Of a DNA stretch of 64,000 nt, positions 1,446 to 54,908 are shown in pieces; position 1 is the stretch's first letter, and each line of letters begins with the position of its first letter. The notes below the pieces were generated by a model that did no database searches, was not told the DNA's origin, and was given only the letters and a program-made list of their open reading frames with translations. Source of the DNA: Alphaproteobacteria bacterium (GTDB taxonomy: Bacteria; Pseudomonadota; Alphaproteobacteria; Micavibrionales; Micavibrionaceae); contig JAGRIJ010000018.1 of assembly GCA_020443295.1 (NCBI GenBank), forward strand, positions 1,249 to 65,248. Direction: 5' to 3'. A program made the translations under genes and the position numbers.

Positions 1446-1985
1446 TTAACGGTGGTGCGCGGGAGCAGTCGTAATCAGTTCGACGACAGGATCGTTTGTC
1501 CCGTTGAAGGTGATGGTTGCCACACGGCGCCCATGATCGTAGCAGGTGGCGATGAATGCCTGTGTCGTGGTTCCTGCGCCGCTCGAGCTTCTTTGCGCGG
1601 AGCCTCTTTCGGCCGAGACGGCTCCCCGTTGGGGCATGGCCACTCCGCCTGCTGTTGCTGCAGAGTTCGTGGTTGTCGCAGCCGTGCTGACATAGTTGCT
1701 GGATGCCGTCAGGCAGTCCTCAACGCTTGCAATGGGCAAGGGCTGCGGTGGCGTGCGATGCGCGGAGTCAGCATCTTGTGATGTGTCAGCTGCTGCCGTT
1801 GTGTCAGGGGGCATTGATACGGTGTTGAAGACAGAACGTCCGCCAACCTGTACCACGACCATGTCCGCATGGACCTTTGTCAAATCCGGTTTCGTTTCCT
1901 GTGCTGAAGCGTCGCCCGGGGCTGTAACTACGAGAAGAGCGCTCAGACCGGCGGCGGTAATGAATTGTTGTAACTTGTTAGCCAT
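1446..1985 (-). CDS. Secreted Ala/Thr/Ser-rich hypothetical protein
   Basis: The second ATG, at 1985, is preceded by GGGGGA. There is a Sec-type signal (MANKLQQFITAAGLSALLVVTAPGDASAQE). No family recognised. The plus-strand ORFs over the same DNA look like shadows. Confidence 0.55.
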   Translation of the reverse strand: MANKLQQFITAAGLSALLVVTAPGDASAQETKPDLTKVHADMVVVQVGGRSVFNTVSMPPDTTAAADTSQDADSAHRTPPQPLPIASVEDCLTASSNYVSTAATTTNSAATAGGVAMPQRGAVSAERGSAQRSSSGAGTTTQAFIATCYDHGRRVATITFNGTNDPVVELITTAPAHHR

Positions 1986-2118
1986 GGGTTTTCCCCCCAT
2001 TCGTTAAAAATGAAACATATATACTATATGGAAATAATATAGACTTGCTTAAGAAGTCAAATCTTTATCTAGCCATATAAGGCCTCCCTTTTAGCATATT
2101 TCTTGATTAAAAAGAACC

Positions 2119-3252
2119 ATGGCGTGGATTCGAACTCTCAAACTGCACTCTTTCCGATCGTACGAAACGGCGGAATTGGCTGATCTCCGGGCGGGATTGC
2201 TGATTTTTTACGGGCCGAACGGGGCCGGGAAGACCAATATTCTCGAGGCTGTTTCGCTGCTTTCCCCCGGGCGGGGGTTACGCGGGGCCCGGCTGGGGGA
2301 GATCCAGAGGCAGGGAGCGCCAGATTCGTGGGCTGTGGCGGCGGAGGTTCAGACCGGGCAGGAAGCTGTCCGGCTGGGGACGGGGCTTGATCCGGAGAGG
2401 GGGGCCGGACCCGAAAAACGGGTCGTGCGGGTGAACGGGAAAACGGCTAAGGGGCAGAACGCTTTGGCGGATTATTTGTCCTGTGTCTGGCTGACGCCGC
2501 AAATGGACGGGCTTTTCCTTGAATCCTCGCGAGAGAGACGGCGGTTTCTCGACCGTCTTGTATTCGGGTTCGATCCCGGTCATTCGGGACGGGTCACGCG
2601 TTATGAGAATGCGCTGGCGCAGCGTTCCCGTTTGTTGCGGGAAGGGAAAGGCGATCCTTCGTGGCTTTCGGGGCTTGAGCAGCAGATGGCGGAAACGGGG
2701 ACAGCCATTGCGGCTGCGCGGCTGGATTTTGCTCATCGGTTACAGGCGGCCTGCAGATCTGCCGAGAACGACCATTTTCCGCTGGTCCAGCTTTCTCTGG
2801 CCGGAACTCTGGAAGAGGCGCTGAAACACGGGAAGGCACTGGATGTTGAGGCTGAATTCCGTGACGCTCTTTCGCAGAGCCGGAGAAAGGACGCGGAAAC
2901 GGGAGGGGCCGAGGCCGGGCCGCATAAGAGCGATCTGGAGGTTGTTTATGCCGACAAAGGGATGAATGCCGCGCAGTGTTCAACCGGGGAGCAGAAGGCT
3001 CTTTTAACCGGTCTTATTCTTGCTCATGCCCAGTTAATCGCTGCCGAACGTGGCGAGCCGCCGATCCTGCTTCTTGACGAGGTTGCGGCCCATCTGGATG
3101 AATCGCGAAGGGCTGCCCTTTACGAGATTTTGGAGGGGCTGAACGCGCAGGTGTGGCTGACCGGAACGGATCAGGCTGTTTTCGATGCTGTGAGGAAGCG
3201 CGCGCATTTTTTTACTGTAAGAGAATCACTTATTGAAGCGGTCGAGACATAA
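2119..3252 (+). CDS. recF: DNA replication and repair protein RecF
   Basis: N-terminus MAWIRTLKLHSFRSYE...FYGPNGAGKTNILEAVSLL carries the Walker A motif. The SMC-like signature is CSTGEQKALL and Walker B is ILLLDEVAAHLD. Confidence 0.93.
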   Translation: MAWIRTLKLHSFRSYETAELADLRAGLLIFYGPNGAGKTNILEAVSLLSPGRGLRGARLGEIQRQGAPDSWAVAAEVQTGQEAVRLGTGLDPERGAGPEKRVVRVNGKTAKGQNALADYLSCVWLTPQMDGLFLESSRERRRFLDRLVFGFDPGHSGRVTRYENALAQRSRLLREGKGDPSWLSGLEQQMAETGTAIAAARLDFAHRLQAACRSAENDHFPLVQLSLAGTLEEALKHGKALDVEAEFRDALSQSRRKDAETGGAEAGPHKSDLEVVYADKGMNAAQCSTGEQKALLTGLILAHAQLIAAERGEPPILLLDEVAAHLDESRRAALYEILEGLNAQVWLTGTDQAVFDAVRKRAHFFTVRESLIEAVET

Positions 3253-3365
3253 AATTTTTCTTTCCGGATTTTTTTATGCGCTTTCAGCCAGATAGTCTCT
3301 CTTTGGTTTTTTCTTCTCCGTTTGAGGATTGATCGGTTGAATATCAATGGCTATAGTCGGCCACC

Positions 3366-4265
3366 ATGCTTGGATTACAGCACGTCAGAATTACGCCTTC
3401 GATGCTCAAGCTCGCCTGTGCGGTCGATGAGTTCAAGGGCGCGTGGACCGCTCTTGAAAACCATACAACATCGCTACAAATTTTGGGAGATGTGTCCAAT
3501 TTCGGCCGGAATTTAAAAGAAATCGCAGGAGCTTGGCAGAACAAGGTGATCGATGAAGAGATGGTCTGCAAGCTGCATGGGCTTTTCTCGGGATCGAAGA
3601 AAACAAGTTCTTATCGCAGCGGGCCGCATACGCTGAATATCTACCAGAATGATGCGCTGGTCGGCGTGCTTGAGACGGCGACTCCCGAAGAGGTGCGGGC
3701 GCTTATGCCTCGTCTGATCCATTGGGTAACGGAAGCGCTGGAAAAGGGGGAAATTCATCCGCTTTTTGTCATTGCCATTTTTACAGCGGTTTTCCTGCAA
3801 CTTTGTCCGTTCGAGAAGGGAAACCAGAAACTTGCGAGGATTCTCGCGGTTTTACTGCTTCTGAAAAGTCATTACAGCTATGCGCCGTTCAGTCTTCTCG
3901 ATCAAATTTTTTCCGAGAAGGGCGAAGCCTATTTCAACTCCCTGAAACATACGCAGGAGACCCTTGCCGCGGGACGTGTGGATTGGGATGTGTGGATCGG
4001 GTTTTTCCTTGAGATCCTTTGCGACCAGAAGAACGTGCTTCAGGGGCGTCTTGAAAAAGGGCGGCCGGAGATCGCGAACATGCCTTCGCTGTCGACCAAG
4101 GTTCTGCGCCTGTTCGACAAGCATGAGCGGATGAGCATGAAGGAAATTGAGAGGCTTACCCGCGGGAAGCGGTCTACGCTGAAGCTGCGGCTTGGCGAAC
4201 TTGTCGATGAAGGATATCTCGTCAGGCATGGAAAAGCGCGTGCGACCTGGTATTCCCGGGTTTAG
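3366..4265 (+). CDS. Fic/DOC-fold protein with a degenerate active-site motif and a C-terminal winged-helix domain
   Basis: The core reads IHPLFVIAIFTAVFLQLCPFEKGNQKLARILAVLLLL and aligns to the Fic motif HPFx(D/E)GNGRxxR. The changes are H->C, G->Q and R->K. The C-terminus MSMKEIERLTRGKRSTLKLRLGELVDEGYLVRHGKARATWY is wHTH-like. Confidence 0.7.
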   Translation: MLGLQHVRITPSMLKLACAVDEFKGAWTALENHTTSLQILGDVSNFGRNLKEIAGAWQNKVIDEEMVCKLHGLFSGSKKTSSYRSGPHTLNIYQNDALVGVLETATPEEVRALMPRLIHWVTEALEKGEIHPLFVIAIFTAVFLQLCPFEKGNQKLARILAVLLLLKSHYSYAPFSLLDQIFSEKGEAYFNSLKHTQETLAAGRVDWDVWIGFFLEILCDQKNVLQGRLEKGRPEIANMPSLSTKVLRLFDKHERMSMKEIERLTRGKRSTLKLRLGELVDEGYLVRHGKARATWYSRV

Positions 4266-4281
4266 GTTTTAGCGGTTACTT

Positions 4282-7200
4282 TCAGGGCTTGTTCTCGCCG
4301 TCTTCGCTTTTTCCGTCACCGTTCTCGTGCCCGTTTCCATTTCCATTTTTCAGGAGAGAGTCCGCGAGGTCTTCGCCTGCCTTTTTAAGCGTGTCTCCGG
4401 CTTCCTGCGGGAGCGCTGCCGTTTCTGCAGGCGGCGGCGTTGCCGGTTTTTGCGTTGAAAAGATGGCCGGTTTTTCCGGTGGTGGCTGCTGAGCTTCGCC
4501 AGAGGAGGCTGGCGGAGGCGCTGTTGCTGCGGGTGGCGTTACAGGAGGAGCCGGAGGAGGTGTAACGGGCTGCGCTGTTTCCGCGGCGGGCGGCGTTTGT
4601 GCCGCAGGGGTTCCTCCAAAAATTGCAGGTTTTTCAGCAGGGGGCGCCGCTTGTGCTGCTGCCGGAGGAGCGGCAGGCGTTTCCGCCGGCGTTTGTGTTG
4701 CCGGAGCGCTGCCAAAGATGGCCGGTTTTTCCGGTTGTTGTTGAGCTTCGCCAGAAGAGGCTGGCGGGGGTGTCGTTGCTGCGGGCGGTGGTGCCGCAGG
4801 AGGTGTTGCAGGGGGTTCTGCCGGAGATTTTGCAGCCGGAGTTCCCCCAAAGACCGCGGGTTTTTCCGTTGCGGGAGCTGCTGGCGGTGTTGTAGCAGGG
4901 GGGCTGGCCGGAGGCTGTACCGGGGTCTTGGCTACAGGAGCTCCGCCGAAGATCGCGGGCTTTTCGGCGGGTGGCGCTGATACGGGCGGTGGTGCTGCAG
5001 GAGTAGCAGGGGGCGGCGGCGCAGATGTTGTCGGCGGAGGCGTCGTCGATGCCGGAGATTTGCTGAAGAAGGACATCGGCGCGGCCCCCGCTTTTGCCGT
5101 TTCAGCGGTTGCCGGGGCGGAACCGGTTACAGTTTCTGCCTGCTTAACGATTTCAGCGGGTTTTTTGGCGACCAGAGGCGGCGCGGCTTTCTGGGCCACC
5201 TGTGCGACCGGAGAAGAGCCAGAAACAGTGGCAGGCGCAGCCGGTGTCGTTGCGGGGGGTGCGGTCGGCGGAGCAGATGGAGCAGTCGGGCCACCACCAG
5301 ATCCTCCACCCCCTCCTCCTGCCGGCGGGGGGTTGCCCTTGTCATCGGTGGCCGGGATTTCATGGTCGATCGCGTGGATGCTGACCAAGGCGGCGATCCC
5401 GGCATCAACGGGACTGATGCTCGGTTTGAGGCTCTTTTTGAAGCCTTCGTTCATCGCAGCAACTTCCTTGCTGGTTTCGATTGCGACATCGGCGCGCATG
5501 GCTGTCCAGCTCTTGTTGACCATCAGGTCGCGCAGTTTGCGGATGGAGGTGGAGTGTTTGACCACTTCCTCGTCCGGCGGCGGCAGGATCATAAAGCGCG
5601 TGACGCGCATCGCCTTGGCGTGGCCGGGGTTGGAGTAGAAAATCGCGCAGTCGACGACCGTATCGCCGAAGGTAACAACCGCCTGACCTTCGCGGAAACC
5701 GCGCAAGCTGTCATAGCTGGCGCGCGGGCGAAGCTGAACGCCGGCCTGCTTGGTGTCGTGATAAGCGCCGAATTCCGTCCCGCCCGCCATCTGGAAGCCT
5801 GAAACCTCCGTGACCATCGCGGAACCCACGGTTTTTTCGAAGAAGTCCTTGGTTTCGGTCGGGTCTTCGAGCTTGCCGAAAATCTTGATGTTACAGTTAC
5901 CGACAATCGAGTTCGCTTCCTCGCGGACCCGTTTTTTCATCGCGGGCAAATCCTGACCGGAGAAGACGAGACAGAAGCCCAGAGAACGGGCCTGAGCGGC
6001 CATAACCGCCATCCCCTGCGCGGTATAGTAACCGACCTCGTCGAAGACGGTCATGAACGGAGTTGCGGAGTGTGTCGGCTTGTTCTCGATAACGGTTTCA
6101 GAGGAACCTTCAACGGTGGAGCCGAGGGTCGAACCCATCATCCCTTTCATGGTCGCGGAGACGATTTTACCGAGGTTTGCGACCTCGTCGCCGGACTTTT
6201 CAAGGGCCGGGATCAGAACGATCAGGATCCGGCGGTTCAGAACCACGTCGACCATATCGACGTCTGCGGCCTGCGTATCGAAGATGTAACCGTAATCATC
6301 GCCCAAAGATTGCAGGGAGCGGGTGAACTGCATCGCCAGATAACCGTGCTGCTGGGATGCCGTTTCCGTGTTGTATTGCGGCGTATCGGGGCCGGGCGGT
6401 TTGACTTTACCGTTGTCGTCGTACGCGTCGTTTATGAAGCCCGGAAGGGTCTCAAGATATCCTTTAAGACCTGCACGGGTCGTTGTCGGCACTGCCTCGT
6501 CCCGAGAGAGTTTAATGACGTTCGCCAAAGTCAGGTAATCACGAATGGAACGGACCGAGAGAGGGATGTCCTGATTATCCCGTTTCCATGTCAAAGCGGG
6601 CATGATGGAACTGATCAAGGACACCGCCCGTTCTTTCCACATTGCGTTGTCGCCTTCCGCTTCGGGCATCAAGCTGACAAGCATGTTCACGAGGTAGGAC
6701 GCCGATCCGCTGGAAAACGGGTTCATTGTATTCGACGGGGCACGTACGTCCGCGTTTCCGGTCATGTAGTTCAGGACCAGTAGGTCGTCGTCTCTTCCAA
6801 ATCGGCGGACCAGCGACGAGAGGGAGGACCAGAGGTCTGTATCGGCTTTACCGTCGACGTATACGAAGCCGGACCCCCAGGCGAGTGCATTGGTCACCAT
6901 GGATTTCAGACCTTCGGTTTTACCGGCACCGGTCGTTCCGAGGTAGAGGATATGCGTTCGTGCGTCGGAGTTCGTAAACCAGACTTCCTCGTTGGTTTTT
7001 TCCACATTACCGAGATAGAGAATACCCTCGGCCTTGCCGGGCTTGCCGCCACGGCCATTGTTCATGTCCTTGAATTTCGATCCCTTCGGGAGTTTGAAGG
7101 CGAGGGTTCGGTCCCGGCCGCGCAGCCAGAGCCAGTAGAGAAACATGATTGCGACAATCAGATCTCCGAAAGTCTGCGCCCATTCATTGATGTAAACGGC

Positions 7201-7335
7201 CATGGCTGTGAGCATGAAAATAGAGGTCGAGTAGGACGGGTTGGACATCCCGTCGGCGACACGAACCGAAAGCGGGCGCACGTCCCGCAATATGGCTTCA
7301 TGTTTATGCTCGTACTTTCTCTGGTCTAATGCCAT
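4282..7335 (-). CDS. dotL: Type IVB secretion coupling protein, DotL/IcmO (TrbC of IncI) family, with a long low-complexity C-terminal extension
   Basis: There is an N-terminal membrane anchor, Walker A LGTTGAGKTEGL and Walker B FMTVFDEVGYY. Blocks VVLNRRILIVLIPALEKSGDEVANLGKI, QHGYLAMQFTR, ARSLGFCLVFSGQDLPA and NIKIFGKLEDPTET match my recollection of Legionella DotL. Confidence 0.85.
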   Translation of the reverse strand: MALDQRKYEHKHEAILRDVRPLSVRVADGMSNPSYSTSIFMLTAMAVYINEWAQTFGDLIVAIMFLYWLWLRGRDRTLAFKLPKGSKFKDMNNGRGGKPGKAEGILYLGNVEKTNEEVWFTNSDARTHILYLGTTGAGKTEGLKSMVTNALAWGSGFVYVDGKADTDLWSSLSSLVRRFGRDDDLLVLNYMTGNADVRAPSNTMNPFSSGSASYLVNMLVSLMPEAEGDNAMWKERAVSLISSIMPALTWKRDNQDIPLSVRSIRDYLTLANVIKLSRDEAVPTTTRAGLKGYLETLPGFINDAYDDNGKVKPPGPDTPQYNTETASQQHGYLAMQFTRSLQSLGDDYGYIFDTQAADVDMVDVVLNRRILIVLIPALEKSGDEVANLGKIVSATMKGMMGSTLGSTVEGSSETVIENKPTHSATPFMTVFDEVGYYTAQGMAVMAAQARSLGFCLVFSGQDLPAMKKRVREEANSIVGNCNIKIFGKLEDPTETKDFFEKTVGSAMVTEVSGFQMAGGTEFGAYHDTKQAGVQLRPRASYDSLRGFREGQAVVTFGDTVVDCAIFYSNPGHAKAMRVTRFMILPPPDEEVVKHSTSIRKLRDLMVNKSWTAMRADVAIETSKEVAAMNEGFKKSLKPSISPVDAGIAALVSIHAIDHEIPATDDKGNPPPAGGGGGGSGGGPTAPSAPPTAPPATTPAAPATVSGSSPVAQVAQKAAPPLVAKKPAEIVKQAETVTGSAPATAETAKAGAAPMSFFSKSPASTTPPPTTSAPPPPATPAAPPPVSAPPAEKPAIFGGAPVAKTPVQPPASPPATTPPAAPATEKPAVFGGTPAAKSPAEPPATPPAAPPPAATTPPPASSGEAQQQPEKPAIFGSAPATQTPAETPAAPPAAAQAAPPAEKPAIFGGTPAAQTPPAAETAQPVTPPPAPPVTPPAATAPPPASSGEAQQPPPEKPAIFSTQKPATPPPAETAALPQEAGDTLKKAGEDLADSLLKNGNGNGHENGDGKSEDGENKP
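4456..4965 (-). repeat. Five degenerate in-frame repeats encoding EKPA(I/V)FG(G/S) separated by P/A/T-rich spacers, inside the dotL 3' end
   Basis: The repeat units start at codons 791, 824, 869, 901 and 954 of the 1017-aa ORF. The SSGEAQQ(Q/P)P(P)EKPAIF context occurs twice. Confidence 0.8.
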
Positions 7336-7352
7336 GTTTTAAATCTTTTTCC

Positions 7353-7931
7353 TTAATTCTGCCTTCTGCTCAGGAAATCGTCTGCAGACACGGGAACTCC
7401 TGTTTCTTCCGAGGATGCGGAGGAGGAGGTTGCTTTTCTGCTCAGGATACTGTCGGTTGATCTGGGAATTGAAAACGACCATGCCATAACCAGCAGAAGA
7501 ATCATTACAACGGCCAAAACAGCGCCCGCTTTTCCACCGTGATGTGCCTCTCCAGAGGAAAATCTTGCCGGAGAAGCATTACTGATCGCGGGTTGCGAGT
7601 TGTTATGGTTGGCCGCACGGATAGCCTGAGGGCGGATTTTTCCGTGCGCGTTTTCCAGAGCATTCGAAGTGGCCATCAGCGCCTGAATGGCACTGGCGCG
7701 GTCTTCGTAGCTCGCGATATCTTCCACTTCTCCTTTGAGTGTTTTGAGGCAGAGGTTGAAGCGATTATTTTTCACGTCTTCCTTGACTTGCAGGGCCGAG
7801 GATTTGGCTTGTTCCAAGTCCATTTGCCAGACAACAGGGGTGTAGGCATCGGGAAGCGAGAGGATGAGTTTTCCATCGACGATGGATGCGCTGGAGACGA
7901 GAGGTTGATTTTGTTTTTTTGCCATTTTCAT
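7353..7931 (-). CDS. Hypothetical single-pass membrane protein between dotM and dotL
   Basis: The 192-aa ORF lies 45 nt after the dotM stop and 17 nt before the dotL start. It has a roughly 120-aa N-terminal soluble part, a TM segment GAVLAVVMILLLVMAWSF and a Ser-rich tail. No family recognised and no obvious SD. Confidence 0.6.
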   Translation of the reverse strand: MKMAKKQNQPLVSSASIVDGKLILSLPDAYTPVVWQMDLEQAKSSALQVKEDVKNNRFNLCLKTLKGEVEDIASYEDRASAIQALMATSNALENAHGKIRPQAIRAANHNNSQPAISNASPARFSSGEAHHGGKAGAVLAVVMILLLVMAWSFSIPRSTDSILSRKATSSSASSEETGVPVSADDFLSRRQN

Positions 7932-7976
7932 ATCTTGTTTCGGATGAAGGTTTTAAAAAGTAGTACTTAAATTCCG

Positions 7977-9188
7977 TTAGATCGCCTTCTTCACACCCTT
8001 TTGTTTTGATTTGCTGTAATCCAATGCCGGGATCGGTCTTGCGCGATCCGAAGTCATGTATTCGATGATGGTCGTTACCGCATCCTGCACTTTTGGAACG
8101 GGGATCGGACGCTGTGTCAGTTTTTCCGCTTTATAATGGGCCATCGCTCCCAACGCTTCGGTATGATAGGACTGGCGGCCCATATTATTCAGCGGGTACC
8201 ACAAGGTCCGGTCATGAGCGCGCAGCCACAAGAACTGGGAGGGGGAGAGAACTCCGCCTTCTTCGCGGGCGTAAGCCAAGCCCTTCATCAAGGCTGTGGT
8301 TTCGAAGGCGTGCTGGTTTACCACGGCCAGCGTTTTTCCGGCGAGATCCTTGTCCTTCAGAATGTTAACGGCGTATTTGAAGAGCTTCCGGTCTTTTCTA
8401 AGATCGAGTCCGTTTTTGAAAGACCAGCACTTGGCCAGACGTCCGAGCATATCGTCGGCTTCCGCCCGCTTTCTGGCTGCTTTCAGACAGAAGGCGGCCA
8501 AGAGAACCTGTTTATAGTCTTCAAGGCTGTTTGGTCCTTTCCAGCGTTCGCCGAGTTGTTTTACAAAGGCTTCTGCCGTTTCTTCCTGGTCAATCTTGCC
8601 GTCCGGTACGGAAATCCGGTTATATGCCAGCCATTCTTCCGGTCCCAAGGCTTCAGCAAACGAAGGCAGGTCGGCGGGAACAGGCGAGCCGGGCGGGCGA
8701 GTCGGCTGGTTAGAAGGATTAAATTTTACGAAAGGCGCGATGACCGGGAAAATGTTGGCTTGTCTTTCTATCAGGCCTTCCAGATTGAATCTACGGCGGT
8801 AGTGCGTCCGCGGTCCGAGGAACATACACCACATCGCACCAAGTCCTAGTAAGCTTACCAGCGGCATTCTCCATGGCTGCATGGCCATGGCGTTGAAGAA
8901 TGAAAGATGTTTGAAAACCAGCTTTCCCTTAGGGTATTTCGTTATATTGTCTATGTGGTCGTGGAAATTGAGTTCTTTACCGTTCCAGAACACCTTGTAA
9001 TCGCTGTCCATGAACCAGGAGATTGTCCAGACTTCCGCATAACGGATCCAGCGGACCATTTCCCTGACTTCACCTTGGAAGAAAAACCAGAAAATCCAGA
9101 TCAATACGGCAAAGATGAACAGCATAATCGTCCAGCCGATCGCACTGTCATGTAGAGAATCAGGACTCTGTTGTTGTCCGCCAGCCAA
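7977..9188 (-). CDS. dotM: DotM/IcmP (TrbA of IncI)-like inner-membrane protein
   Basis: The 403-aa ORF has a Gln-rich N-terminus followed by the TM segment IGWTIMLFIFAVLIWIFWFFF and a second hydrophobic segment. A large soluble domain follows. Its size, topology and position upstream of dotL fit IcmP/DotM. The assignment rests partly on context. Confidence 0.6.
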   Translation of the reverse strand: MAGGQQQSPDSLHDSAIGWTIMLFIFAVLIWIFWFFFQGEVREMVRWIRYAEVWTISWFMDSDYKVFWNGKELNFHDHIDNITKYPKGKLVFKHLSFFNAMAMQPWRMPLVSLLGLGAMWCMFLGPRTHYRRRFNLEGLIERQANIFPVIAPFVKFNPSNQPTRPPGSPVPADLPSFAEALGPEEWLAYNRISVPDGKIDQEETAEAFVKQLGERWKGPNSLEDYKQVLLAAFCLKAARKRAEADDMLGRLAKCWSFKNGLDLRKDRKLFKYAVNILKDKDLAGKTLAVVNQHAFETTALMKGLAYAREEGGVLSPSQFLWLRAHDRTLWYPLNNMGRQSYHTEALGAMAHYKAEKLTQRPIPVPKVQDAVTTIIEYMTSDRARPIPALDYSKSKQKGVKKAI

Positions 9189-9447
9189 TGTTCGAAACCC
9201 AACCTAGATAATTTTTACGCTTGCCGTTAAACATTAAGATGTAAAATAGCAGAAAAAAACATAAAAAACCAATAGCTCCGCACAAAAAAACCGTATTGGA
9301 GAGGCGCTGTCAGCCATCTTTTTGAAAAACTTCCAAAAGTGCTTGAAGAGTTCCCCCCGGTTTTGCTACATCTTAGCCGCCCAAGGGTTAAGATAAGATT
9401 ACAGTACCAACATCATTAATTCCTTCGGTACTTCAAAGTCTTCCTAT

Positions 9448-9522
9448 GCCGGATTAGCACAACGGTAGTGCAGTCGATTTGTAATCGAAAGGTTGGGGGT
9501 TCAAATCCCTCATCCGGCACCA
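9448..9522 (+). tRNA. tRNA-Thr (anticodon UGU)
   Basis: Hand-folded 75-nt cloverleaf. Acceptor stem GCCGGAT/ATCCGGC and D stem GCAC/GTGC. The anticodon stem GTCGA/TCGAA has one G-A mismatch. The loop TTTGTAA gives anticodon TGT. T arm GGGGG-TTCAAAT-CCCTC, discriminator A, encoded CCA. Confidence 0.8.
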
Positions 9523-9572
9523 TTGAAACTTTATTGCTTATTTGGCTTTTCTTTTGAATTATTATTGATGAG

Positions 9573-9602
9573 GAGTGCATAAAAATGCGACTCTTCTTGT
9601 TT
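9573..9602 (+). terminator. Probable intrinsic terminator after tRNA-Thr
   Basis: GAGTGCAT-aaaa-ATGC(G)ACTC hairpin followed by TTCTTGTTT. Confidence 0.5.
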
Positions 9603-9622
9603 ATTAATAATTTAAAGAAGCG

Positions 9623-12175
9623 ATGCAGGGAGTTTCAAGGATGGCCAAGGCCAAAGATGCTTTTTCCGATGATAAAACGGGGGGTTCAGGGTTTGAGGGC
9701 GATGAGCGGGTTCAACATATAGAATCCGCCTTGATTGAGCGCGTACGGCAGATCGTTCCCGATGTGTCCCATGCAAAACGCGAGGACTGGTATGCCGCGG
9801 TCGCCGGGCTGGTCAGGGATGAGTTGATTCCTGCATGGCAGGCAACGGAACAGACTTATGCATCTTCACAAGTCGAGGGCCAGGCGCATTACCTTTCTAT
9901 CGAATGGTTGCTTGGGCCCAATATTTCTACGGCCTTGCAAGCAGCGAAACTGGAAAAGGACGTTAAGCAGGCTCTTACCAATCTGGGTCACGATCCGCAG
10001 AAGATACTGGATTTTGAAATGGACCCCGGATTGGGGAATGGCGGTCTTGGGCGGCTGGCGGCCTGTTTTATCGATAGCGGCGCTAACCTTCATATTCCGT
10101 TGCATGGATACGGTCTTTTTTACCGTGATGGATTTTTCAGGCAGGTGATCAATGAGGAGGGACAGCAAGTCGAGCGTCCTCATCAATGGCATTCGGAAGG
10201 GTATCCATGGACCTTCCGGCGCGGGGATGTCGGGCCGTTTTCCGTGACGCTTTTTAAAGACAACCCTAAGGTCTTTGAGGTCAGGGCCCATGACATGATG
10301 GCACCGAGCTATGACGGGCGGACAGTCAATACTTTGCGGTTGTGGGAGCTTGTCGTTCCTGAAGATTTCGATGCCGGCGATGCTCATAAAAACTGGGAAA
10401 TCCGCGCGGTCAACAAACAGCTTTATCCTTCGGATCACGATACGGGCGGGAAGGATTTGAGGCTTTTGCAGGAATATGTGCTTGTCAGCGCATCCCTTCA
10501 GAGCATCTTGAACGATCATCTGAGTAAGTACGACACGCTGGATAATCTTTATCCTATGACTTCCATCCAGATTAACGACACGCATCCGGCACTGGCCATT
10601 CCCGAGTTGATGCGCCTGCTTGTGGACGAGCACGGCATGGAGTGGGAAAGGGCCAAGGAGATTACCTGTAAAGTCTGCAATTACACGAACCATACCCTGA
10701 TGCCGGAAGCTTTGGAAAAGTGGGACAGGGGGAAGCTTGATTACCTGTCACCCCGGATTGAATCCATCCTTTACAGGCTGCACAATGAGCTTATGGAAGA
10801 GGCGGATGTCAAATTTGCGCATCTCAGCGATGAAGACAGGGCTCAGGCCAAGGCGAGAATTGCGGTCCGTTACGGAGATGATTACCGCATGGGCCATCTG
10901 GCTGCTTTCCATTCCGGCCGGGTCAACGGAGTTTCGGCCATGCATACCGAACTGGTCTTTGAGGATCTTTTCCCCGACCTGATTGCCATGCGCGGTTCCA
11001 GTATCAAGGTCAACCATACAAACGGAATCAGCCAGCGGCGTTTTCTTGTAAAGGCCAATCCCGCTCTTGCGACCCTGATCACCAGAACGATGGGAGATGA
11101 AGTATGGATTACCGACCTTGAGCATATCAGGGTTCTGGAGGATCATATGGAGGATCCCGATTTCATGGAGCGTTTCGCCGCGATCAAACGCGGAAACAAA
11201 GAGCGCCTTGCGGATCTGGTCCGTGAAGAGACCGGTGTGGAACTGGATACCGATGCGCTGTTCGATGTTCAGGTCAAACGGATCCATGAATATAAGCGGC
11301 AATTGATGAATTTGTTGCATACCGTGGCTCTGTATCAGGATATGAAGGAGCACCCCGAGGCCAAACGGCCGAAGATTGCCAAGATCATGGCTGGAAAGGC
11401 TGCGCCCGGATATGGAACTGCAAAGGGAATTATCGCTCTGGCTCACAAGCTTCAGCGTATTCTGGATGAGGATCAAAGTCTCGGAGGGAAGCTGAAGCTT
11501 GCTTTCATTCCTGATTATAACGTGCGAAAAGCCGAGATTATCGTTCCCGGCGCTAATCTTTCGGAACAAATTTCGACAGCCGGGACCGAGGCGTCAGGGA
11601 CCAGCAATATGAAATTCGCTTTAAATGGCGCTATTACTATCGGCACGCGCGATGGGGCGAATGTCGAGATCGGGGAGGAAACCGGGGAAGAGAATATCTT
11701 TTTCTTCGGAAAGACGGAAGAAGAGCTGGAAGCTATCAATGCCGCAGGGTATAAGCCGGCAGAGTGGATCGAGAAAAGTCCGCGCCTTAAGAAGGCCCTT
11801 GAGTTTCTTGATAGTATCGGATTCAAATACCTTGCCGACACTGTCCGCAATGACGACCGTTACAGAATCGCTGCGGACTTTGACGATTACTGGGACAAGC
11901 ATCATCAAGCTGCGGATCTTTATCATAATAACCGGCCGGAATGGCGCAGACGTGCAGTGATTAATACGATCGCAGGGGCGCATTTTTCATCTGACCGGAC
12001 TGTCGAAGGCTATGCGCGCCAAAACTGGGCGGTTCATCCCGTCTATCCCGACCTGGATCTCTATGATGAAATTCGCGCGCTTTTTGAAAACCATTCGCTT
12101 GACGTTCCTCTGGGGCTCCGTCGCAACGGCTCGGCGGATACGGATCCGCAGGGTTTTGACGCTGCTATGGGTTAA
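9623..12175 (+). CDS. glgP: Glycogen/maltodextrin phosphorylase
   Basis: The 850-aa ORF carries the PLP-lysine signature TEASGTSNMKFALNGAITIGTRDGANVEI, plus GNGGLGRLAACF. The start may be the second ATG at 9641 (MAKAKD), 8 nt after AGGGAG. Confidence 0.93.
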   Translation: MQGVSRMAKAKDAFSDDKTGGSGFEGDERVQHIESALIERVRQIVPDVSHAKREDWYAAVAGLVRDELIPAWQATEQTYASSQVEGQAHYLSIEWLLGPNISTALQAAKLEKDVKQALTNLGHDPQKILDFEMDPGLGNGGLGRLAACFIDSGANLHIPLHGYGLFYRDGFFRQVINEEGQQVERPHQWHSEGYPWTFRRGDVGPFSVTLFKDNPKVFEVRAHDMMAPSYDGRTVNTLRLWELVVPEDFDAGDAHKNWEIRAVNKQLYPSDHDTGGKDLRLLQEYVLVSASLQSILNDHLSKYDTLDNLYPMTSIQINDTHPALAIPELMRLLVDEHGMEWERAKEITCKVCNYTNHTLMPEALEKWDRGKLDYLSPRIESILYRLHNELMEEADVKFAHLSDEDRAQAKARIAVRYGDDYRMGHLAAFHSGRVNGVSAMHTELVFEDLFPDLIAMRGSSIKVNHTNGISQRRFLVKANPALATLITRTMGDEVWITDLEHIRVLEDHMEDPDFMERFAAIKRGNKERLADLVREETGVELDTDALFDVQVKRIHEYKRQLMNLLHTVALYQDMKEHPEAKRPKIAKIMAGKAAPGYGTAKGIIALAHKLQRILDEDQSLGGKLKLAFIPDYNVRKAEIIVPGANLSEQISTAGTEASGTSNMKFALNGAITIGTRDGANVEIGEETGEENIFFFGKTEEELEAINAAGYKPAEWIEKSPRLKKALEFLDSIGFKYLADTVRNDDRYRIAADFDDYWDKHHQAADLYHNNRPEWRRRAVINTIAGAHFSSDRTVEGYARQNWAVHPVYPDLDLYDEIRALFENHSLDVPLGLRRNGSADTDPQGFDAAMG

Positions 12176-12304: not shown

Positions 12305-13051
12305 ATGGCAGATGATAATGAAGCTCTTGTCGGTCTCATTGAAGCGAACCGAGGCCGCGCGAAGTTTTCCGGGCACGGGAGGTCGTTAGGCGCCGCCGGT
12401 TACCGGGTCGCCAGCGACCATCCAGAGAACTGCGAGTTTCTCGGTGAGCCGGGGCAGAGTATCGCTTTGTCGCCGCCGCAAGGGGGCTTTGAGAGTATTC
12501 TTATCGGCGCTGCCTGGGATAACGTGATTGTTGAAGAGTCAGGAATTCTTGGCCGCTGGTTCAAAAAAGTCCGCAAAATCGGTGTTGATCTGGATATCGG
12601 ATGTCTTTACGAGTTGCAGAACGGCAAGCGAGGCGCCATTCAGGCGTTCGGGGAAAAGTTCGGGGATTTTGAAAATGTCCCCTATATCTCCCTGTCCGGG
12701 GACGAACGGACAGGGGATAAAGAAGGGCATGACGAGTACCTTCTGATCAACGGACACAAATGGAGCGAACTTAAACGTATCCTCGTTTATATCTATATCT
12801 ACAAAGGCGTTCCCAACTGGTCTGCGATCAAGCCGCAGGTGGTGATCGATGTGCCCGGGGAGAACGATCTTTACGTTACTCTCAATGTCTATGACGATAA
12901 TCTGGCGGTCTGCGCCGTTGGCGAGCTGGAGAATGTCCGCGGCGGGATCAGGCTGACCAATCGTACCGAGTATTTTCCCGGACATGAAGAGATGGACCGG
13001 GCCTACGGTTTTGGTCTTGACTGGGGTGACGGCACCAAGCCGCCGCTGTAA
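12305..13051 (+). CDS. TerD-domain protein (TerA/TerD-like, divergent)
   Basis: VDLDIGCLYELQNGKRGAIQ...SLSGDERTGDKEGHDEYLLIN resembles the TerD fold and its acidic Ca2+-binding loop. GAAGGAG lies upstream of the ATG. Confidence 0.7.
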   Translation: MADDNEALVGLIEANRGRAKFSGHGRSLGAAGYRVASDHPENCEFLGEPGQSIALSPPQGGFESILIGAAWDNVIVEESGILGRWFKKVRKIGVDLDIGCLYELQNGKRGAIQAFGEKFGDFENVPYISLSGDERTGDKEGHDEYLLINGHKWSELKRILVYIYIYKGVPNWSAIKPQVVIDVPGENDLYVTLNVYDDNLAVCAVGELENVRGGIRLTNRTEYFPGHEEMDRAYGFGLDWGDGTKPPL

Positions 13052-14746: not shown

Positions 14747-15280
14747 TCAGCGTTTCATGCCCAGAAGCTGGCCCGGTTTGATTTTCGGCGCTTTGCGCCC
14801 GACGCGTCCGCGTTTGCCACCGCCGGCCCGTCCTGAATCGTACATCTCCGTATCAATCAGTTTCTCGATATCCGGCAGTTCGTTCATCTGGATTGCTTCA
14901 ATGCAGGAACGGAAGAAATTACAGCCTTTTTCTTCCCAGTTATAAACCTCGTTTACATAACTTTCACCGTTAATATTCAGAAAAACCGGGACCCATTTAT
15001 CTTCCCGGGCCGGGATAATCCGCATCAGGAGAATCTGTTGCAAGCGTCCATGGGAGGACAGGCCGCCCGAGGTTTCTCCCGAGTCTTCCTCGCCTTCTTT
15101 TTCATCGTGTAAAAACTGGATTTCGGCTTGGACGTCTTCTTCGCCCGGGCCCATTCGGACCTCTGCGCTGCAGGTTATGCCTCTCTCGGCGTCATACAAA
15201 AACCACGGCCTCGTTTCGTAGGCCGAGAGGATGTAATCCACCCCTAATTTTTCCATAACTTCCTTGAGTTCGACCCTCAT
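14747..15280 (-). CDS. Hypothetical protein with an acidic core and a basic Gly/Arg/Lys tail
   Basis: The 177-aa ORF is convergent on terD. It has an acidic stretch EKEGEEDSGETSGG and the C-terminus GGGKRGRVGRKAPKIKPGQLLGMKR. No family recognised. Confidence 0.55.
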   Translation of the reverse strand: MRVELKEVMEKLGVDYILSAYETRPWFLYDAERGITCSAEVRMGPGEEDVQAEIQFLHDEKEGEEDSGETSGGLSSHGRLQQILLMRIIPAREDKWVPVFLNINGESYVNEVYNWEEKGCNFFRSCIEAIQMNELPDIEKLIDTEMYDSGRAGGGKRGRVGRKAPKIKPGQLLGMKR

Positions 15281-22492: not shown

Positions 22493-22858
22493 ATGGTTTG
22501 GCATGTTGTTCAGATCAATTGCGATGCGATCACGGATGTGAAAACGTTTCATCAGGAGTTTGCCGCGGCATTCGGTTTTCCCAATGATTATGCGGGAACC
22601 AAGGAGGCCTGGCTTTTGCGTCTTGCGAAACTGGACGATGTAAATGACCGAGTGACCGAGGTGTATTGCGATCCCGGCGAAGTGATTACCGTGGAGCTTT
22701 TGAATGTCGCTTCTTTCGCCCGGCGCTGTCCGGAAGAATTTACGTTTTGCGTCGAAGGGATTTCCTATATCAACTGGGCGCGACTGGAAGAGGGCATGAA
22801 GCCGATTCTTGCGATCGCCTTTTACGGCGTGCAGACATACGACCTGTCCGGGTTCTAG
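22493..22858 (+). CDS. Barstar-like (ribonuclease inhibitor family) protein, orphan
   Basis: The 121-aa ORF starts at ATG 22493. VVQINCDAITDVKTFHQEFAAAFGFPNDYAGTKEAWLLRL follows the barstar pattern (I..I.....fH......fP.yyG.N.DAl.D.L). The 200-aa ORF in the track includes out-of-frame purD overlap. Confidence 0.5.
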   Translation: MVWHVVQINCDAITDVKTFHQEFAAAFGFPNDYAGTKEAWLLRLAKLDDVNDRVTEVYCDPGEVITVELLNVASFARRCPEEFTFCVEGISYINWARLEEGMKPILAIAFYGVQTYDLSGF

Positions 22859-23334
22859 GTTTTCGTCCTTTTTTCCCTGAAAAAGTTTTTCAGAAGCGCA
22901 CTGCTTTCATTTTCCAGAAGGCCATAAAGGATATCCGGTCTGTGGTGGCAGGTCGGCTGTTCATAGAATTTTGCGCCGTGCAGGATGCCGCCGCCTTTTG
23001 GGTCTTTGGCGGCAAAGATTACCCGGCGCAGGCGGGCAAAGCTGATCGCGGCGGCACACATGGTGCAGGGTTCGAGGGTAACGTACAGGTCATATTCCGG
23101 TAGGCGCTGAACGCCCGCTTTACCCGAAGTTTCCCGGATCACAATCATTTCCGCATGTGACGTCGGGTCGGCCTCGGCAATCGTGCGATTCCCTGCGCGG
23201 GCAGTGATTGTTCTTGTCCTTGCATCGACCATGACTGCACCAATCGGCACTTCGTCGCGCAGGGCGGCCTGTTTCGCCTCTTCCATCGCGGTCTGCATAC
23301 AGGTAATGTCAAATTCATCAAAGGGTTCTGTCAT
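22855..23334 (-). CDS. tadA: tRNA-specific adenosine deaminase
   Basis: Zinc motifs HAEMIVIRE and PCTMCAAAI. The start is chosen at MTEPFDEFDITCMQTAMEEAK (ATG 23334), which gives 159 aa. The ORF is open to 23385. Confidence 0.9.
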   Translation of the reverse strand: MTEPFDEFDITCMQTAMEEAKQAALRDEVPIGAVMVDARTRTITARAGNRTIAEADPTSHAEMIVIRETSGKAGVQRLPEYDLYVTLEPCTMCAAAISFARLRRVIFAAKDPKGGGILHGAKFYEQPTCHHRPDILYGLLENESSALLKNFFREKRTKT

Positions 23335-38567: not shown

Positions 38568-40478
38568 TCAGGGCTTTTTCCTTACCCAGAACTGATACAT
38601 CCGTTTGAAAGTGTCGGGGTTATCCATTTCATAACGATGCCAGTTCTCAAGGTTGACGCCCCTGGGATCCTGCGGGAACCGTTTCAAGTACCCGGAGAGA
38701 GTTTCCAGCGTTGTGAAATCTTTAAAGCCCATAAACTCCAGATTGTTTTTTTCTAATAATTCTTTCAGTTGCACAGTCGTGAAACGGTGTTCCATAACAT
38801 GGAATAAGTAATCCTTGATCTGCGAAAGGAAGTAATAGTCACGGCTTGTCTGAAGATTCTCGATATCAGGTTTGGGCAGGAGGGAGTTTATATTTTTGCG
38901 GAAGTTTTTAACGCTTTCATTGTCGTTGCCGATTGATTTCTCGGCGATTGCTTTACGTGCTTTTACAACACTTCTGCGACCAATTTCGCTGTAAAGAGCA
39001 AGGTTCATGATTCCTCCGGGTTTCAGCAGGCTGACAAGCACTGCTAAGCCGTTCTCAGGATTTTTTAAATGGTGGAGTACGCCAGAGCTTCCGATGATAT
39101 CAAAGCTGCTGGGCTCAAAGACCTTATCCAGAGCCAGAATATCCGCTTGACGGTAAATAATATGCGGGATGTGATTTTCGGTCGTTTTGCGGATGGCGTA
39201 AGCCAGGCTGGTGCGGCTCAGGTCTACCGCTGTAATTTCGGCTTCGGGAAAGGTCCGGGCAAAATAGATGGTTTCATTACCCGTTCCGCACCCTGCGTTC
39301 AGAATTTTTATTTTTCCTTTCGGGACAATGTCACGGACCGGCGCGAGATCAACCGTATCTTTTACATCCGGCACATAACGTAAACGCGGATAAGGCAATT
39401 CTTCATACATTTCCTGAACTTTGGCGGAGGTCTCTGTCTGCAGTTCCGTTAGCGATACTATCGATTTGCTGATTTGCATTTCCTCCAAAGGATCGCACAA
39501 ATGATATTTGAGAAATTTTTTCAGTTCCGGGTTGTTTGCGAGCTGGTCGGCTATGTTTTTTGCCTGAGGGAGCTTGTATATATTTTCATAGCATGCGAGC
39601 AAGCACAGCGGTTTGGGGTCTTTATAGAAGTCCTGCTGCGCTTTGACTTTTTCGCGAAGGATTTCCAGCCATTTTTTTTCTTCTTCGGAGACGTCAAAAA
39701 TATATTCAGTGTAAAAACAATAAATCGCGAGACTTGCAATCATCGTCAGGAAATTTTTATCGAAGATGACGCTTTTGCCTTCCACATGATCTTTCAGTAT
39801 CAGGTGGCGGAGATGCGTCAAAAAAAGTTCAAAACCCAAGTCACATACTGTGATGCGTTCCAACCCGAGCGTCAAATAACGTGACTGTAAAGTGTTGTAG
39901 TCGCCGAGATTATCAAATTTTTTTTCGAAGGTATTAAAATCCTTACAGTGACGAAGGTTGTATATCGGGGCGAGTTCAGGATCGCTAATCATCAGGCTCA
40001 TCCATGCGATGCCGATATAATCCAGATCCAGCGTTTCATCTTCGAGGCAAAAACCGATAAGGCGTTTAATTTCAGGATGGAAAAAATCAAACCTGATTTT
40101 TTTCAGCATAATCGTGAATTCCAGTTTATGGCCACGTTTATGAGGTGCAGCGGTGATAGCCATAGCGCTATATTCCATGGCTTTTTCTATATCTCCGCGT
40201 TCATAAAAAATTCTCATAAGATTTGCATACGCAGCATCGTATTGCGGGTCGAGAATTGTGGCTTGCTGAAACAGATTGACCGCTGTGTCGATATTTCCCT
40301 GCATATAGCGAAGGGTGCCAAGGTTGTGGGCAGCATCGGCGGTAGGAAAAATGTCCATGGATTCTTTCAGGTATTTCTCCGCTCCGGCAAAATCCTGTTT
40401 TTTGATACATTCCACCGCCTGAGCGTAGATTGACTTTGCTTTTTCCTCGTTTGACTGGGTGGGCGCCGATTGTGTCAT
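38568..40478 (-). CDS. TPR-repeat protein fused to a class I SAM-dependent methyltransferase
   Basis: N-terminal TPRs (AHNLGTLRYMQGNIDTAVNLFQQATILDPQYDAAYANL). C-terminal motif I ILNAGCGTGNETIYFA. Local GC is clearly below the flanks by hand count on a few lines. Confidence 0.8.
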   Translation of the reverse strand: MTQSAPTQSNEEKAKSIYAQAVECIKKQDFAGAEKYLKESMDIFPTADAAHNLGTLRYMQGNIDTAVNLFQQATILDPQYDAAYANLMRIFYERGDIEKAMEYSAMAITAAPHKRGHKLEFTIMLKKIRFDFFHPEIKRLIGFCLEDETLDLDYIGIAWMSLMISDPELAPIYNLRHCKDFNTFEKKFDNLGDYNTLQSRYLTLGLERITVCDLGFELFLTHLRHLILKDHVEGKSVIFDKNFLTMIASLAIYCFYTEYIFDVSEEEKKWLEILREKVKAQQDFYKDPKPLCLLACYENIYKLPQAKNIADQLANNPELKKFLKYHLCDPLEEMQISKSIVSLTELQTETSAKVQEMYEELPYPRLRYVPDVKDTVDLAPVRDIVPKGKIKILNAGCGTGNETIYFARTFPEAEITAVDLSRTSLAYAIRKTTENHIPHIIYRQADILALDKVFEPSSFDIIGSSGVLHHLKNPENGLAVLVSLLKPGGIMNLALYSEIGRRSVVKARKAIAEKSIGNDNESVKNFRKNINSLLPKPDIENLQTSRDYYFLSQIKDYLFHVMEHRFTTVQLKELLEKNNLEFMGFKDFTTLETLSGYLKRFPQDPRGVNLENWHRYEMDNPDTFKRMYQFWVRKKP

Positions 40479-40559
40479 GGTCCGGAAACTCCTGAAAATC
40501 CCTATTTTCCAACACTTAAAAGAAAAACGCTTGGAAGATCAAATGTTTTCCGGTTTTGC

Positions 40560-41921
40560 TTATCTCATTTTCTTTTTGAGAAGTACCACTTCCTCCGCCG
40601 CGGTGGGGTGGATGGCGATGGTGGAATCAAAGTGTTTTTTGGTCGCGCCCGCGATCATGGCGACGGCGAAGCCCTGCGTGATCTCGGGGGCGTCCTGCCC
40701 GACCATGTGAAAGCCCAGCACCCTGTCGGTTTCACGGTGGACAACCAGCTTGACCAGCGTGCGCTCGTCGCGCCCGGAAACTGCGTTTTTCATGCCCAGA
40801 AAATCGTCTCGGTAGATGTCGATCGCGCCGGGGTATTGTTCGAGGGCCTGTTCCTCCGTCAAACCGACCTGCCCGACGGGCGGGTTGGAGAAGATGGCGT
40901 GCGGGACGTTCTCGTAGGAAACATAGCGCTGTTTTCCCCCGTAGAGGCGGTCGGCGAGGGCGTGGCCCTCCGCGATGGCGACGGGGGTGAGGGCGATGCG
41001 GTCGGTTACGTCGCCGATGGCGTAGATGGAGGGGATGGAGGTCCGGGCGTCTTCGTTCACGAGCACGGCGTTTGCGGCACTGACCTTGACGCCGATTTCG
41101 GCCAAGCCCAGCGGCTCGATATTCGGGATGCGGCCGGTGGCGAAGAGGATGGCGTCGGCCCCGATGGTTTTACCCTCGCGCAGGGTCACGGTCACGCCTT
41201 GCCCGTTTTTCTCCACCTTTTTGATGGTTTCCTTGGGGTGGAGGTTTATGCCCTTTTTGCCCATTTCGTCTTGCAGGAAGGTGCGGACTTCGTGATCGAA
41301 ACCGGGTTTGAGGATATGTTCTCGGCGGAAGACGAGATGGACCTCGCTGCCGAGCTGGTTGAAAATTCCGGCGAATTCCAGCGCGATATAGCCCGCGCCG
41401 TAAATCACGATTTTTTGCGGGCGTTCGGGCAGGGAGAAAACATCATCGGAGGTGATGCCGAATTCCCGCGCGCCCGGCGTGTCGGGGATAAAGGGTTTTG
41501 CGCCCGTTGCGATCAGGATGTGCTCGGCGGTTATGGTTTTTCCTTCGACCTCCACGCTGTGCGGGCCGGTGATTTTCGCGGTGGCGTTAAAGACGGGCTG
41601 GCCGTCGCTTTCGATGCCTTTGCTGATCATGCCGTTGAGGAATTCGACTTCGCCCTGTTGTGCTGTGATGTATTTTTGCCAGTCGTGGGCGGAGGGACCG
41701 ACAGTCCAGCCGAATCCGCCGGCGTCTTTCATGTGCGTGGCGTAGGATGCGGCATAGGTCATCAGCTTCTTGGGCACGCAGCCGAGATTAACGCAGGTGC
41801 CGCCGATATGGCGGTTTTCGGCGTAGGCGATCTTTTTGCCGTATTCGCCCGCGACGCGCCCGGCGCGGCCCCCGCCTGAGCCGCTGCCGATGATGAAGAG
41901 GTCGAAGTCGTACGCGGTCAT
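40560..41921 (-). CDS. gor: Glutathione-disulfide reductase
   Basis: FDLFIIGSGSGGGRA, redox-active GGTCVNLGCVPKK, and C-terminal IAIHPTAAEE. Confidence 0.92.
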   Translation of the reverse strand: MTAYDFDLFIIGSGSGGGRAGRVAGEYGKKIAYAENRHIGGTCVNLGCVPKKLMTYAASYATHMKDAGGFGWTVGPSAHDWQKYITAQQGEVEFLNGMISKGIESDGQPVFNATAKITGPHSVEVEGKTITAEHILIATGAKPFIPDTPGAREFGITSDDVFSLPERPQKIVIYGAGYIALEFAGIFNQLGSEVHLVFRREHILKPGFDHEVRTFLQDEMGKKGINLHPKETIKKVEKNGQGVTVTLREGKTIGADAILFATGRIPNIEPLGLAEIGVKVSAANAVLVNEDARTSIPSIYAIGDVTDRIALTPVAIAEGHALADRLYGGKQRYVSYENVPHAIFSNPPVGQVGLTEEQALEQYPGAIDIYRDDFLGMKNAVSGRDERTLVKLVVHRETDRVLGFHMVGQDAPEITQGFAVAMIAGATKKHFDSTIAIHPTAAEEVVLLKKKMR

Positions 41922-54855: not shown

Positions 54856-54908
54856 ATTAAAGAAATGGTGTAACCTAACCCCGTCCTATGGGTTTTTGGG
54901 AGTTTCTT

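Follow-up and report, generated by a model that had tools for sequence, protein, structure and literature searches.

We analysed a stretch of 64,000 nucleotides (nt) from a member of the Micavibrionaceae (contig JAGRIJ010000018.1, positions 1,249 to 65,248 of the forward strand), which we call the window, and concentrated on a three-gene operon within it, dotM-orf192-dotL. This trio is very probably the coupling-complex locus, i.e. the substrate receptor, of a Dot/Icm-type type IVB secretion system (T4BSS) on the chromosome, which is spread over three or more loci and vertically inherited across the Micavibrio lineage. A preliminary description of the window had called the trio an orphan. It is not an orphan, because the chromosomes of relatives carry dotD-dotC-dotB-icmT, a Micavibrio-like contig carries a further set of T4BSS genes and published surveys call a system of the type pT4SSi in the lineage. 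The preliminary description was a correct observation that was over-read. A dispersed locus accounts for the module, which is of an ordinary kind. In the following the trio is referred to as locus A, the dotD-dotC-dotB-icmT region as locus B and the region leading from dotI, dotH and dotG to dotN and dotO as locus C. Related loci are labelled L001-L134, where L064 and L070 belong to Micavibrio aeruginosavorus and L086 to an Acinetobacter T4BSS plasmid. The open reading frame (ORF) calls and the subdivision of dotL gave the following features for locus A:

7977-9188, minus strand: dotM/icmP homologue, 403 amino acids (aa), TTG start (ORF call)
7353-7931, minus strand: orf192, 192 aa (ORF call)
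4282-7335, minus strand: dotL/icmO (trbC), 1017 aa (ORF call)
5416-7335, minus strand: dotL core, residues 1-640, with the N-terminal hydrophobic hairpin and the type IV coupling ATPase domain
4282-5415, minus strand: dotL C-terminal tail, residues 641-1017 and stop codon, a Pro/Ala/Thr-rich low-complexity region

The three genes follow each other tightly, with gaps of 17 nt (dotL/orf192) and 45 nt (orf192/dotM), and lie between dnaN and recF on one side and tRNA-Thr (9448-9522) and glgP on the other. The Pfam scan covered 48 of the 50 greedily picked window ORFs of at least 90 aa (all except the short ORFs 57130-57483 and 63569-63868). Among the 48 there was no family of type IV secretion systems (T4SS), relaxases or pili beyond the trio, in agreement with the preliminary description. 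The family-bearing ORFs outside the locus are housekeeping genes, and nine of the 48, including orf192, have no family. The GC content across the locus is close to the window mean with the exception of 4-6 kb, where it reaches 0.61 because the Pro/Ala-rich DotL tail is encoded there; apart from that tail the composition is native, in line with the preliminary description. When we scanned positions 3200-9700 for regulatory sites, promoter-like sites occurred at chance level and terminator-like sites in modest excess, with no clear signal.

With phmmer the window DotL aligned colinearly to Legionella IcmO/DotL (PDB 6SZ9_A, E = 5.4e-151, residues 8-655 against 9-656). In NCBIfam it matched TrbC_conju (E = 1.1e-117) with 394 bits, under the equivalog cut-off of 800 of a model that is tuned to IncI TrbC, and no Legionella-type DotL model matched it in the same scan. 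The Walker A motif (GTTGAGKT at residue 133) and the Walker B-like motif (VFDEVGYY at residue 430) are intact, the columns around them are invariant in nine lineage members, and residues 38-71 form an N-terminal hydrophobic hairpin. A search with the DotL core detected 4171 relatives, and the statements on names and identities refer to the best 120 of these. All 120 are at least 79% identical to the query and labelled as Micavibrio, Alphaproteobacteria or Rhodospirillales metagenome-assembled genomes (MAGs). The family comprises 896 clusters at 50% identity with E of at most 1e-30. An exact-protein look-up of the window DotL gave no record; the nearest complete chromosome is OZ246000.1 with a DotL-core identity of 91%. 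The nearest plasmid DotL, on a Bosea megaplasmid, is 41% identical, and TrbC of IncI, IncL/M and related plasmids 28-35%. The Bosea sp. RAC05 plasmid pBSY19_1 (NZ_CP016463.1 286951-328822, L085) is a 709-kb 'non-mobilizable' megaplasmid. On it IcmB/DotO lies ~10 kb from the closest plasmid DotL, mostly surrounded by hypothetical genes, and tblastn found three DotL-like places.

The alignment to the Legionella protein ends at residue 656, and the adaptor-binding extension (Legionella residues ~660-783, for DotN, IcmSW and LvgA) is not matched. The tail of the window DotL has 377 aa, is rich in Pro, Ala and Thr and contains one APMSFF and five EKPA(I/V)FGG/S motifs (positions 753, 793, 826, 871, 903 and 956). 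These protein motifs are irregularly spaced, and Tandem Repeats Finder detected no long DNA-level repeat in the tail. DotL homologues range from 652 to 1060 aa, with 0-8 copies of the tail motif among the 40 homologues listed and a median of 1 over all 120. An uncharacterised protein of ~370 aa in locus B (X~370; L087 6832-7944, with homologues in L088, L008, L076 and L093) ends in (N/D)PM(A/S)F(F/Y) in four of the five homologues checked and in PLSFF in the fifth (L093), and in some homologues this terminal motif sits in an acidic tail. The background of the PM motif is 0.45 matches per 1000 aa over all ORFs of the loci. The motif common to the DotL tail and X~370 may be a short linear motif for one shared partner.

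DotM matched Pfam DotM_C (PF23127) with E = 1.4e-49 and 169 bits at a cut-off of 27, NCBIfam DotM_IcmP_IVB with 166 bits, which is under the equivalog cut-off of 230, and Legionella DotM (6SZ9_B) with E = 2.2e-21. It has a hydrophobic helix at residues 12-30, and its N-terminal membrane segments are followed by a C-terminal all-alpha cytoplasmic DotM domain. In Legionella the Glu-rich tails of effectors are bound by the arginines R196, R197, R217, R314 and R315. According to the HMMER alignment the window keeps R314 alone (as R327), and the others are replaced by D, Q, S and T; the source paper on these arginines describes R314 alone as widely conserved. Judged by their sequences, the Legionella and IncI proteins have true orthologues in the DotL and DotM described here. 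As both are homologous to subunits of the Legionella coupling complex (PDB 6SZ9), we assign DotL the role of the membrane-anchored ATPase receptor and DotM that of its membrane partner.

The product of orf192 has a single hydrophobic helix near residues 135-155, i.e. it is a bitopic membrane protein, as previously described, and we place it in the inner membrane. Its homologues (cluster orf~186) share a conserved N-terminal domain of ~90 aa, a variable linker, one transmembrane helix and a conserved C-terminal GVPVSADDFL motif in the alignment. Neither Pfam nor NCBIfam contains a family for it, its profile yielded chance-level matches alone against PDB sequences (E of at least 0.02) and the single-sequence AlphaFold2 model was unusable (pLDDT 44). 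The identification of orf192 with DotN was rejected; DotN is encoded separately in locus C. We propose orf192 as a lineage-specific extra subunit of the coupling complex. Because orf192 is present, the DotL tail is replaced and most of the DotM arginines are lost, substrate recognition would be unlike that of Legionella.

To compare the surroundings of the trio we clustered the ORFs of 85 sources, namely 84 related loci and the initial 22 kb of the window. The block dotM-orf-dotL-(orf257)-(Fic)-argS-gyrB-recF-dnaN was conserved and the side upstream of dotM was variable. We detected dotM in 78 of the 85 sources, orf~186 in 77, always between dotM and dotL, and dotL in 75. For the neighbouring genes the numbers were 56 (argS), 46 (gyrB), 43 (Fic), 35 (orf~257, missing in the window), 32 (recF) and 17 (dnaN). 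Between the window and L001 the identity was 78% for DotL, 80% for DnaN and 60% for RecF; between the window and M. aeruginosavorus (L064) it was 71% for DotL over residues 1-657, 74% for DnaN and 55% for RecF. The DotL core is conserved about as well as DnaN and better than RecF. Given this identity and the conserved synteny, the trio is, on the sequence evidence, a vertically inherited and strongly constrained core locus of the Micavibrio lineage and no island. When a single genome was scanned for each species, 80 loci with identities of 60-96% were returned, and all 80 carry dotL, among them the cultured M. aeruginosavorus HCB189 and several complete chromosomes of 2.1-2.5 Mb. The earlier suggestion that such systems are not the norm in this lineage has to be dropped, as the trio is in all 80 species genomes returned and surveys list pT4SSi.

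Further parts of the system were found in relatives. Using the Acinetobacter proteins of L086 as phmmer queries we detected DotD, DotC and DotB contiguous with the trio in L008 (2328-11980), where locus B lies upstream of the trio, and in L076 (54-11839), where it lies downstream. Pfam confirmed DotD (1.4e-36), T4SS_TraI/DotC (1.1e-80) and a T2SSE ATPase in these loci and added an SLT transglycosylase and a TcpQ-like protein. From this contiguity it follows that the split between loci A and B is not fixed in the lineage. A search with the L008 DotB returned proteins that were 81-96% identical and located on contigs equal in size to those bearing DotL (2,441,785; 2,427,155; 2,331,622; 1,052,325; 888,367; 1,078,139; 767,649 and 563,513 nt). 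L004 (dotL) and L087 (dotB) are one ENA record, in which the two genes are ~187 kb apart; on two other complete chromosomes the distance is 150-160 kb, and locus B also occurs in L088 and L093. There was no second dotL or dotM beside locus B. In relatives, further T4BSS genes are thus present elsewhere with no dotL or dotM of their own beside them, which makes the trio a dispersed locus. Of the two readings offered by the preliminary description, the first, a piece split off from a T4BSS, is borne out by loci B and C.

The gene order of locus B is a DsbC/TrbB-like thioredoxin, X~370, SLT, dotD, dotC, dotB, icmT (PF28014) and X/TcpQ, after which follow a convergent flagellin gene, flgK and three or four paralogous uncharacterised genes in tandem. 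Within it, dotD-C-B-icmT matches traH-I-J-K of IncI in its order. These paralogues, which stand between flagellin/flgK and dotI and so between loci B and C, encode proteins of 440-680 aa with an N-terminal hydrophobic helix, a conserved 'AHKDYHPS' motif and no Pfam family (L088 17114-21161, L089 17467-21158, L112 751-2238; also L116, L128, L132 and L134).

With the DotO of the Bosea plasmid as query we obtained 385 alphaproteobacterial IcmB matches, none of which was on a Micavibrio contig, and a DotO profile built from these gave no match in the sequences flanking DotL and DotB. Locus C came to light in a metagenome scan with a DotO/TraU alignment. The contig MDTC01206728.1, which was not among the places returned for the DotL P0079, holds dotB (L089) and, ~14 kb beyond it, locus C (L112), which consists of DotI/IcmL (Pfam, 4e-63), DotH/IcmK (Pfam, 6e-72), DotG (TrbI domain), two uncharacterised proteins, one with a DUF6750/TraR-like end, DotN/IcmJ (PDB 5X1H, E = 1.3e-25) and DotO/IcmB (IncI TraU, 8e-94; Bosea IcmB, 6.5e-273). 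For the locus C proteins X426 and X552 there were no sequence relatives in the PDB. DotO was found in 14 metagenomic loci and is 74-85% identical in at least 11 metagenomic loci besides L112; DotI, DotH and DotG each recur in five of these 11 or more loci and DotN in nine, with most of the gene order kept in at least five, and some of these loci have the same paralogues upstream. On the chromosomes that carry dotL, the 10-kb flank of dotB ends within the flagellin-flgK-paralogue block. Because this is the same block, locus C would be expected just past the end of that flank.

The system belongs to the known MPF-I/Dot-Icm kind, and automated surveys with TXSScan/MacSyFinder counted it in Micavibrio before. 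In TXSScan such a pT4SSi call reportedly requires VirB4/TraU. Table S3 of that survey gives both M. aeruginosavorus genomes, ARL-13 and EPB, pT4SSi = 1 and a score of 0 for each of the conjugative types of T4SS (Abby et al. 2016; PMC4793230), and seven marine Micavibrionales are listed with pT4SSi by Needham et al. 2022 (PMC9418006). These calls concern the same system as that of the trio, but they consist of a count or a sentence alone, with no locus map, description of the coupling locus or link to predation. The genome paper of ARL-13 reports the absence of type IV secretion systems, and its own expression table names GMV_383 'icmO' (PMC3189940). GMV_383-385 are the trio of ARL-13, GMV_384 and GMV_385 being the orf192 and DotM homologues, and were transcribed with a gene expression index of 1.7-4.3 in both phases. 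A 2025 review of contact-dependent predation mentions type IV secretion solely through the titles of cited papers, which deal with Lysobacter and with killing systems of the Xanthomonas type, and not for Micavibrio (PMC12428579). Our literature search found no paper that joins Micavibrio with T4BSS terms. In the literature searched we did not find the locus-level picture, i.e. the three dispersed loci, the extra subunit, the repeat tail, the degenerate Fic gene and the position of the coupling locus beside the replication-origin gene cluster.

Among the known systems closest to the trio are the MPF-I transfer genes of IncI1-type plasmids, compared below, and the Dot/Icm coupling complex of Legionella (DotL-DotM-DotN with IcmS/IcmW/LvgA/DotY/DotZ; PDB 6SZ9, 7OVB). 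DotL is colinear over ~650 residues, the cytoplasmic domain of DotM is conserved, dotM lies upstream of dotL, and in the Micavibrio lineage DotN adjoins dotO just as icmJ adjoins icmB. In both cases the genes occupy several chromosomal loci with dotD-C-B as a unit of its own. Unlike Legionella, the Micavibrio lineage has an extra membrane-protein gene between dotM and dotL, the adaptor-binding region of its DotL is replaced by the Pro/Ala-rich repeat tail, IcmS, IcmW and LvgA were not found in the DNA reached, and four of the five DotM arginines that bind Glu-rich peptides are not kept in the window. The hosts differ as well: Micavibrio is an alphaproteobacterial predator of bacteria, whereas Legionella is an intracellular parasite of eukaryotes.

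Based on this comparison we propose the following mechanism. DotL, anchored by its N-terminal hairpin, would act as the ATPase receptor at the base of the machine in the inner membrane together with DotM and DotN, and to this complex orf192 would add a membrane subunit specific to the lineage. The Pro/Ala-rich tail with its repeated PMxFF/EKPAIFGG motifs may replace the IcmSW/LvgA-binding tail as the place where substrates or an adaptor dock. Substrates would then be handed to the channel powered by DotO and DotB and carried across the envelope of the predator, most likely into attached prey. The function is probably the delivery of effectors during predation. More tentatively, and with more doubt than confidence, we suggest that the Micavibrio T4BSS injects effectors into attached Gram-negative prey and that these substrates are selected by the tail motifs and orf192, which would take the place of IcmSW/LvgA and the Glu-rich signal.

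The bacteria-killing X-T4SS of Xanthomonas, Stenotrophomonas and Lysobacter transfers toxic effectors into Gram-negative bacteria in a contact-dependent manner and recruits these effectors via its coupling protein. It might be a functional analogue if the Micavibrio system has a role in killing. Unlike the latter it has the VirB/VirD4 type IVA architecture and an XVIPCD effector signal, and the two are related only at the level of the superfamilies of type IV coupling proteins and VirB4 ATPases. If the proposal is true, the Micavibrio system would be the first example of a type IVB machine directed against bacteria in predation. The Dot/Icm-type machine is a concrete candidate for the feeding or killing apparatus of Micavibrio, because it is present in every lineage member returned and the conservation of its coupling ATPase is close to that of DnaN. 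A lesson for annotation is that an isolated dotM-dotL pair beside housekeeping genes may belong to a dispersed system with the rest 150-190 kb off, as dispersal is frequent among such systems.

Several observations weigh against this explanation. Loci B and C are tied together on a single contig, MDTC01206728.1, and locus C is tied to the dotL chromosomes by shared synteny only; for the window's own genome both loci are extrapolated from relatives. In the DNA reached around the loci we detected no DotA/TraY, IcmX/TraW, IcmS/IcmW or DotF, and jackhmmer searches with IncI TraY and TraW found nothing in ~0.4 Mb of loci from the Micavibrio clade. The loss of the four effector-tail-binding arginines in DotM and the modest expression of the trio in ARL-13 point in the same direction.

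We weighed three alternative explanations. The first accepts the same machine and differs in the targets, which would be eukaryotic cells (protists), or assigns it to envelope- or pilus-related export in the predator itself. To our knowledge every characterised effector-translocating T4BSS targets eukaryotes. The 2022 survey groups the pT4SSi of Micavibrionales with those of host-associated bacteria (PMC9418006), and many members of the lineage are uncultured MAGs of unknown lifestyle. However, those members that are in culture live as obligate epibiotic predators on Gram-negative bacteria (PMC3189940), the IncI relatives deliver into bacteria, and a lineage for which predation is the sole known growth mode carries the system universally and under strong constraint. 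We consider this alternative unlikely, though it deserves to be kept in mind.

According to the second alternative the trio is a remnant or an active part of an integrated IncI-like conjugative element and DotL a coupling protein for DNA transfer. The closest curated model is indeed that of IncI TrbC. The trio mirrors trbA-trbB-trbC of IncI1 in being a three-gene operon with the DotM homologue first and the DotL homologue last, and locus B shares its gene order with traH-I-J-K, the two systems also having a DsbC/TrbB-like thioredoxin protein in common. Furthermore, a tRNA gene adjoins the trio and M. aeruginosavorus has islands that resemble integrative and conjugative elements, with mobA/MobL. 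In contrast to IncI1, where the middle gene of the operon is the DsbC-like TrbB, Micavibrio keeps its TrbB-like gene in locus B, and its DotL shares just 28-35% identity with TrbC. Around the three loci examined there is no integrase, relaxase or repeat boundary, and neither nikA/B nor a shufflon was seen. Relaxase families did not turn up among the scanned proteins around the three loci, although no genome-wide relaxase search was made. The trio is chromosomal, vertically inherited and syntenic with argS, gyrB, recF and dnaN across the lineage, it is conserved about as well as DnaN, its GC content is native except for the tail, and TXSScan scores pT4SSi and no conjugative type. This alternative is very improbable on this evidence.

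The third alternative, which was the second reading of the preliminary description and to which we give hardly any credence, is that of an orphan coupling ATPase module that needs no T4SS channel and takes part in a different task of membrane transport or of DNA or protein handling: it agrees with the lack of other T4SS genes in the window, with 78 of the 80 genome-scan loci having no other T4BSS gene within 10 kb of the trio and with a DotL tail and middle gene unlike those of Legionella, but it is largely refuted already by dotDCB-icmT on the same chromosomes as the trio and contiguous with it in L008 and L076, by DotN, which in Legionella is the third core subunit of the coupling complex, adjoining dotO in locus C, and by the call of a complete pT4SSi for M. 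aeruginosavorus.

Returning to the dispersed T4BSS, we also studied the gene next to its coupling locus, which is convergent with dotL and stands on the recF side of the trio:

3366-4265, plus strand: Fic-like gene, 299 aa (ORF call)

The protein matched Pfam Fic with 31.5 bits at a cut-off of 24, so that the fold is present, and has a C-terminal winged-helix domain; among solved structures it is closest to the Fido-domain protein 8UQU (E = 1.4e-11). The Fic motif of the window reads CPFEKGNQKLAR as compared to HPFx[D/E]GNGRxxR. The missing catalytic His, which had been noted before, is not peculiar to the window: all 43 homologues among the 85 sources lack it, have the second Gly replaced and read [C/S/A/G]PFxxGNx[K/R]xxR, and their winged-helix region is nearly invariant. 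The protein looks like a conserved pseudo-enzyme and is perhaps a regulator. The gene is dispensable, because M. aeruginosavorus (L064 and L070) keeps the trio without it. It is a conserved neighbour of the trio in about half of the genomes.

A second neighbour, orf257, encodes a protein of ~230-260 aa that has no Pfam family and whose hydrophobic N-terminus is pilin-like, and overlaps the stop codon of dotL in 35 loci; an example is 12576-13349 of L064 (M. aeruginosavorus), which is GMV_382. It is lost in the window and its closest relatives (L005-L007 and L073), where dotL abuts the Fic gene.

Apart from orf192, eight window ORFs of 141-469 aa had no Pfam family at E of at most 0.001 (0.01 for 1446-2000). 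These are greedy longest-ORF calls and may include non-genes:

1446-2000, minus strand: ORF between dnaN and recF, on the opposite strand to them
12305-13051, plus strand: ORF
14747-15280, minus strand: ORF
22666-23103, plus strand: ORF
40470-41879, plus strand: ORF
41946-42371, plus strand: ORF
47588-48301, plus strand: ORF
54888-55502, plus strand: ORF

The sole other envelope- or interaction-type genes of the window are located at 58427-60713, where a protein of the IalB (invasion-associated locus B) family is encoded beside a Csd3/M23 peptidase, upstream of RNase E.

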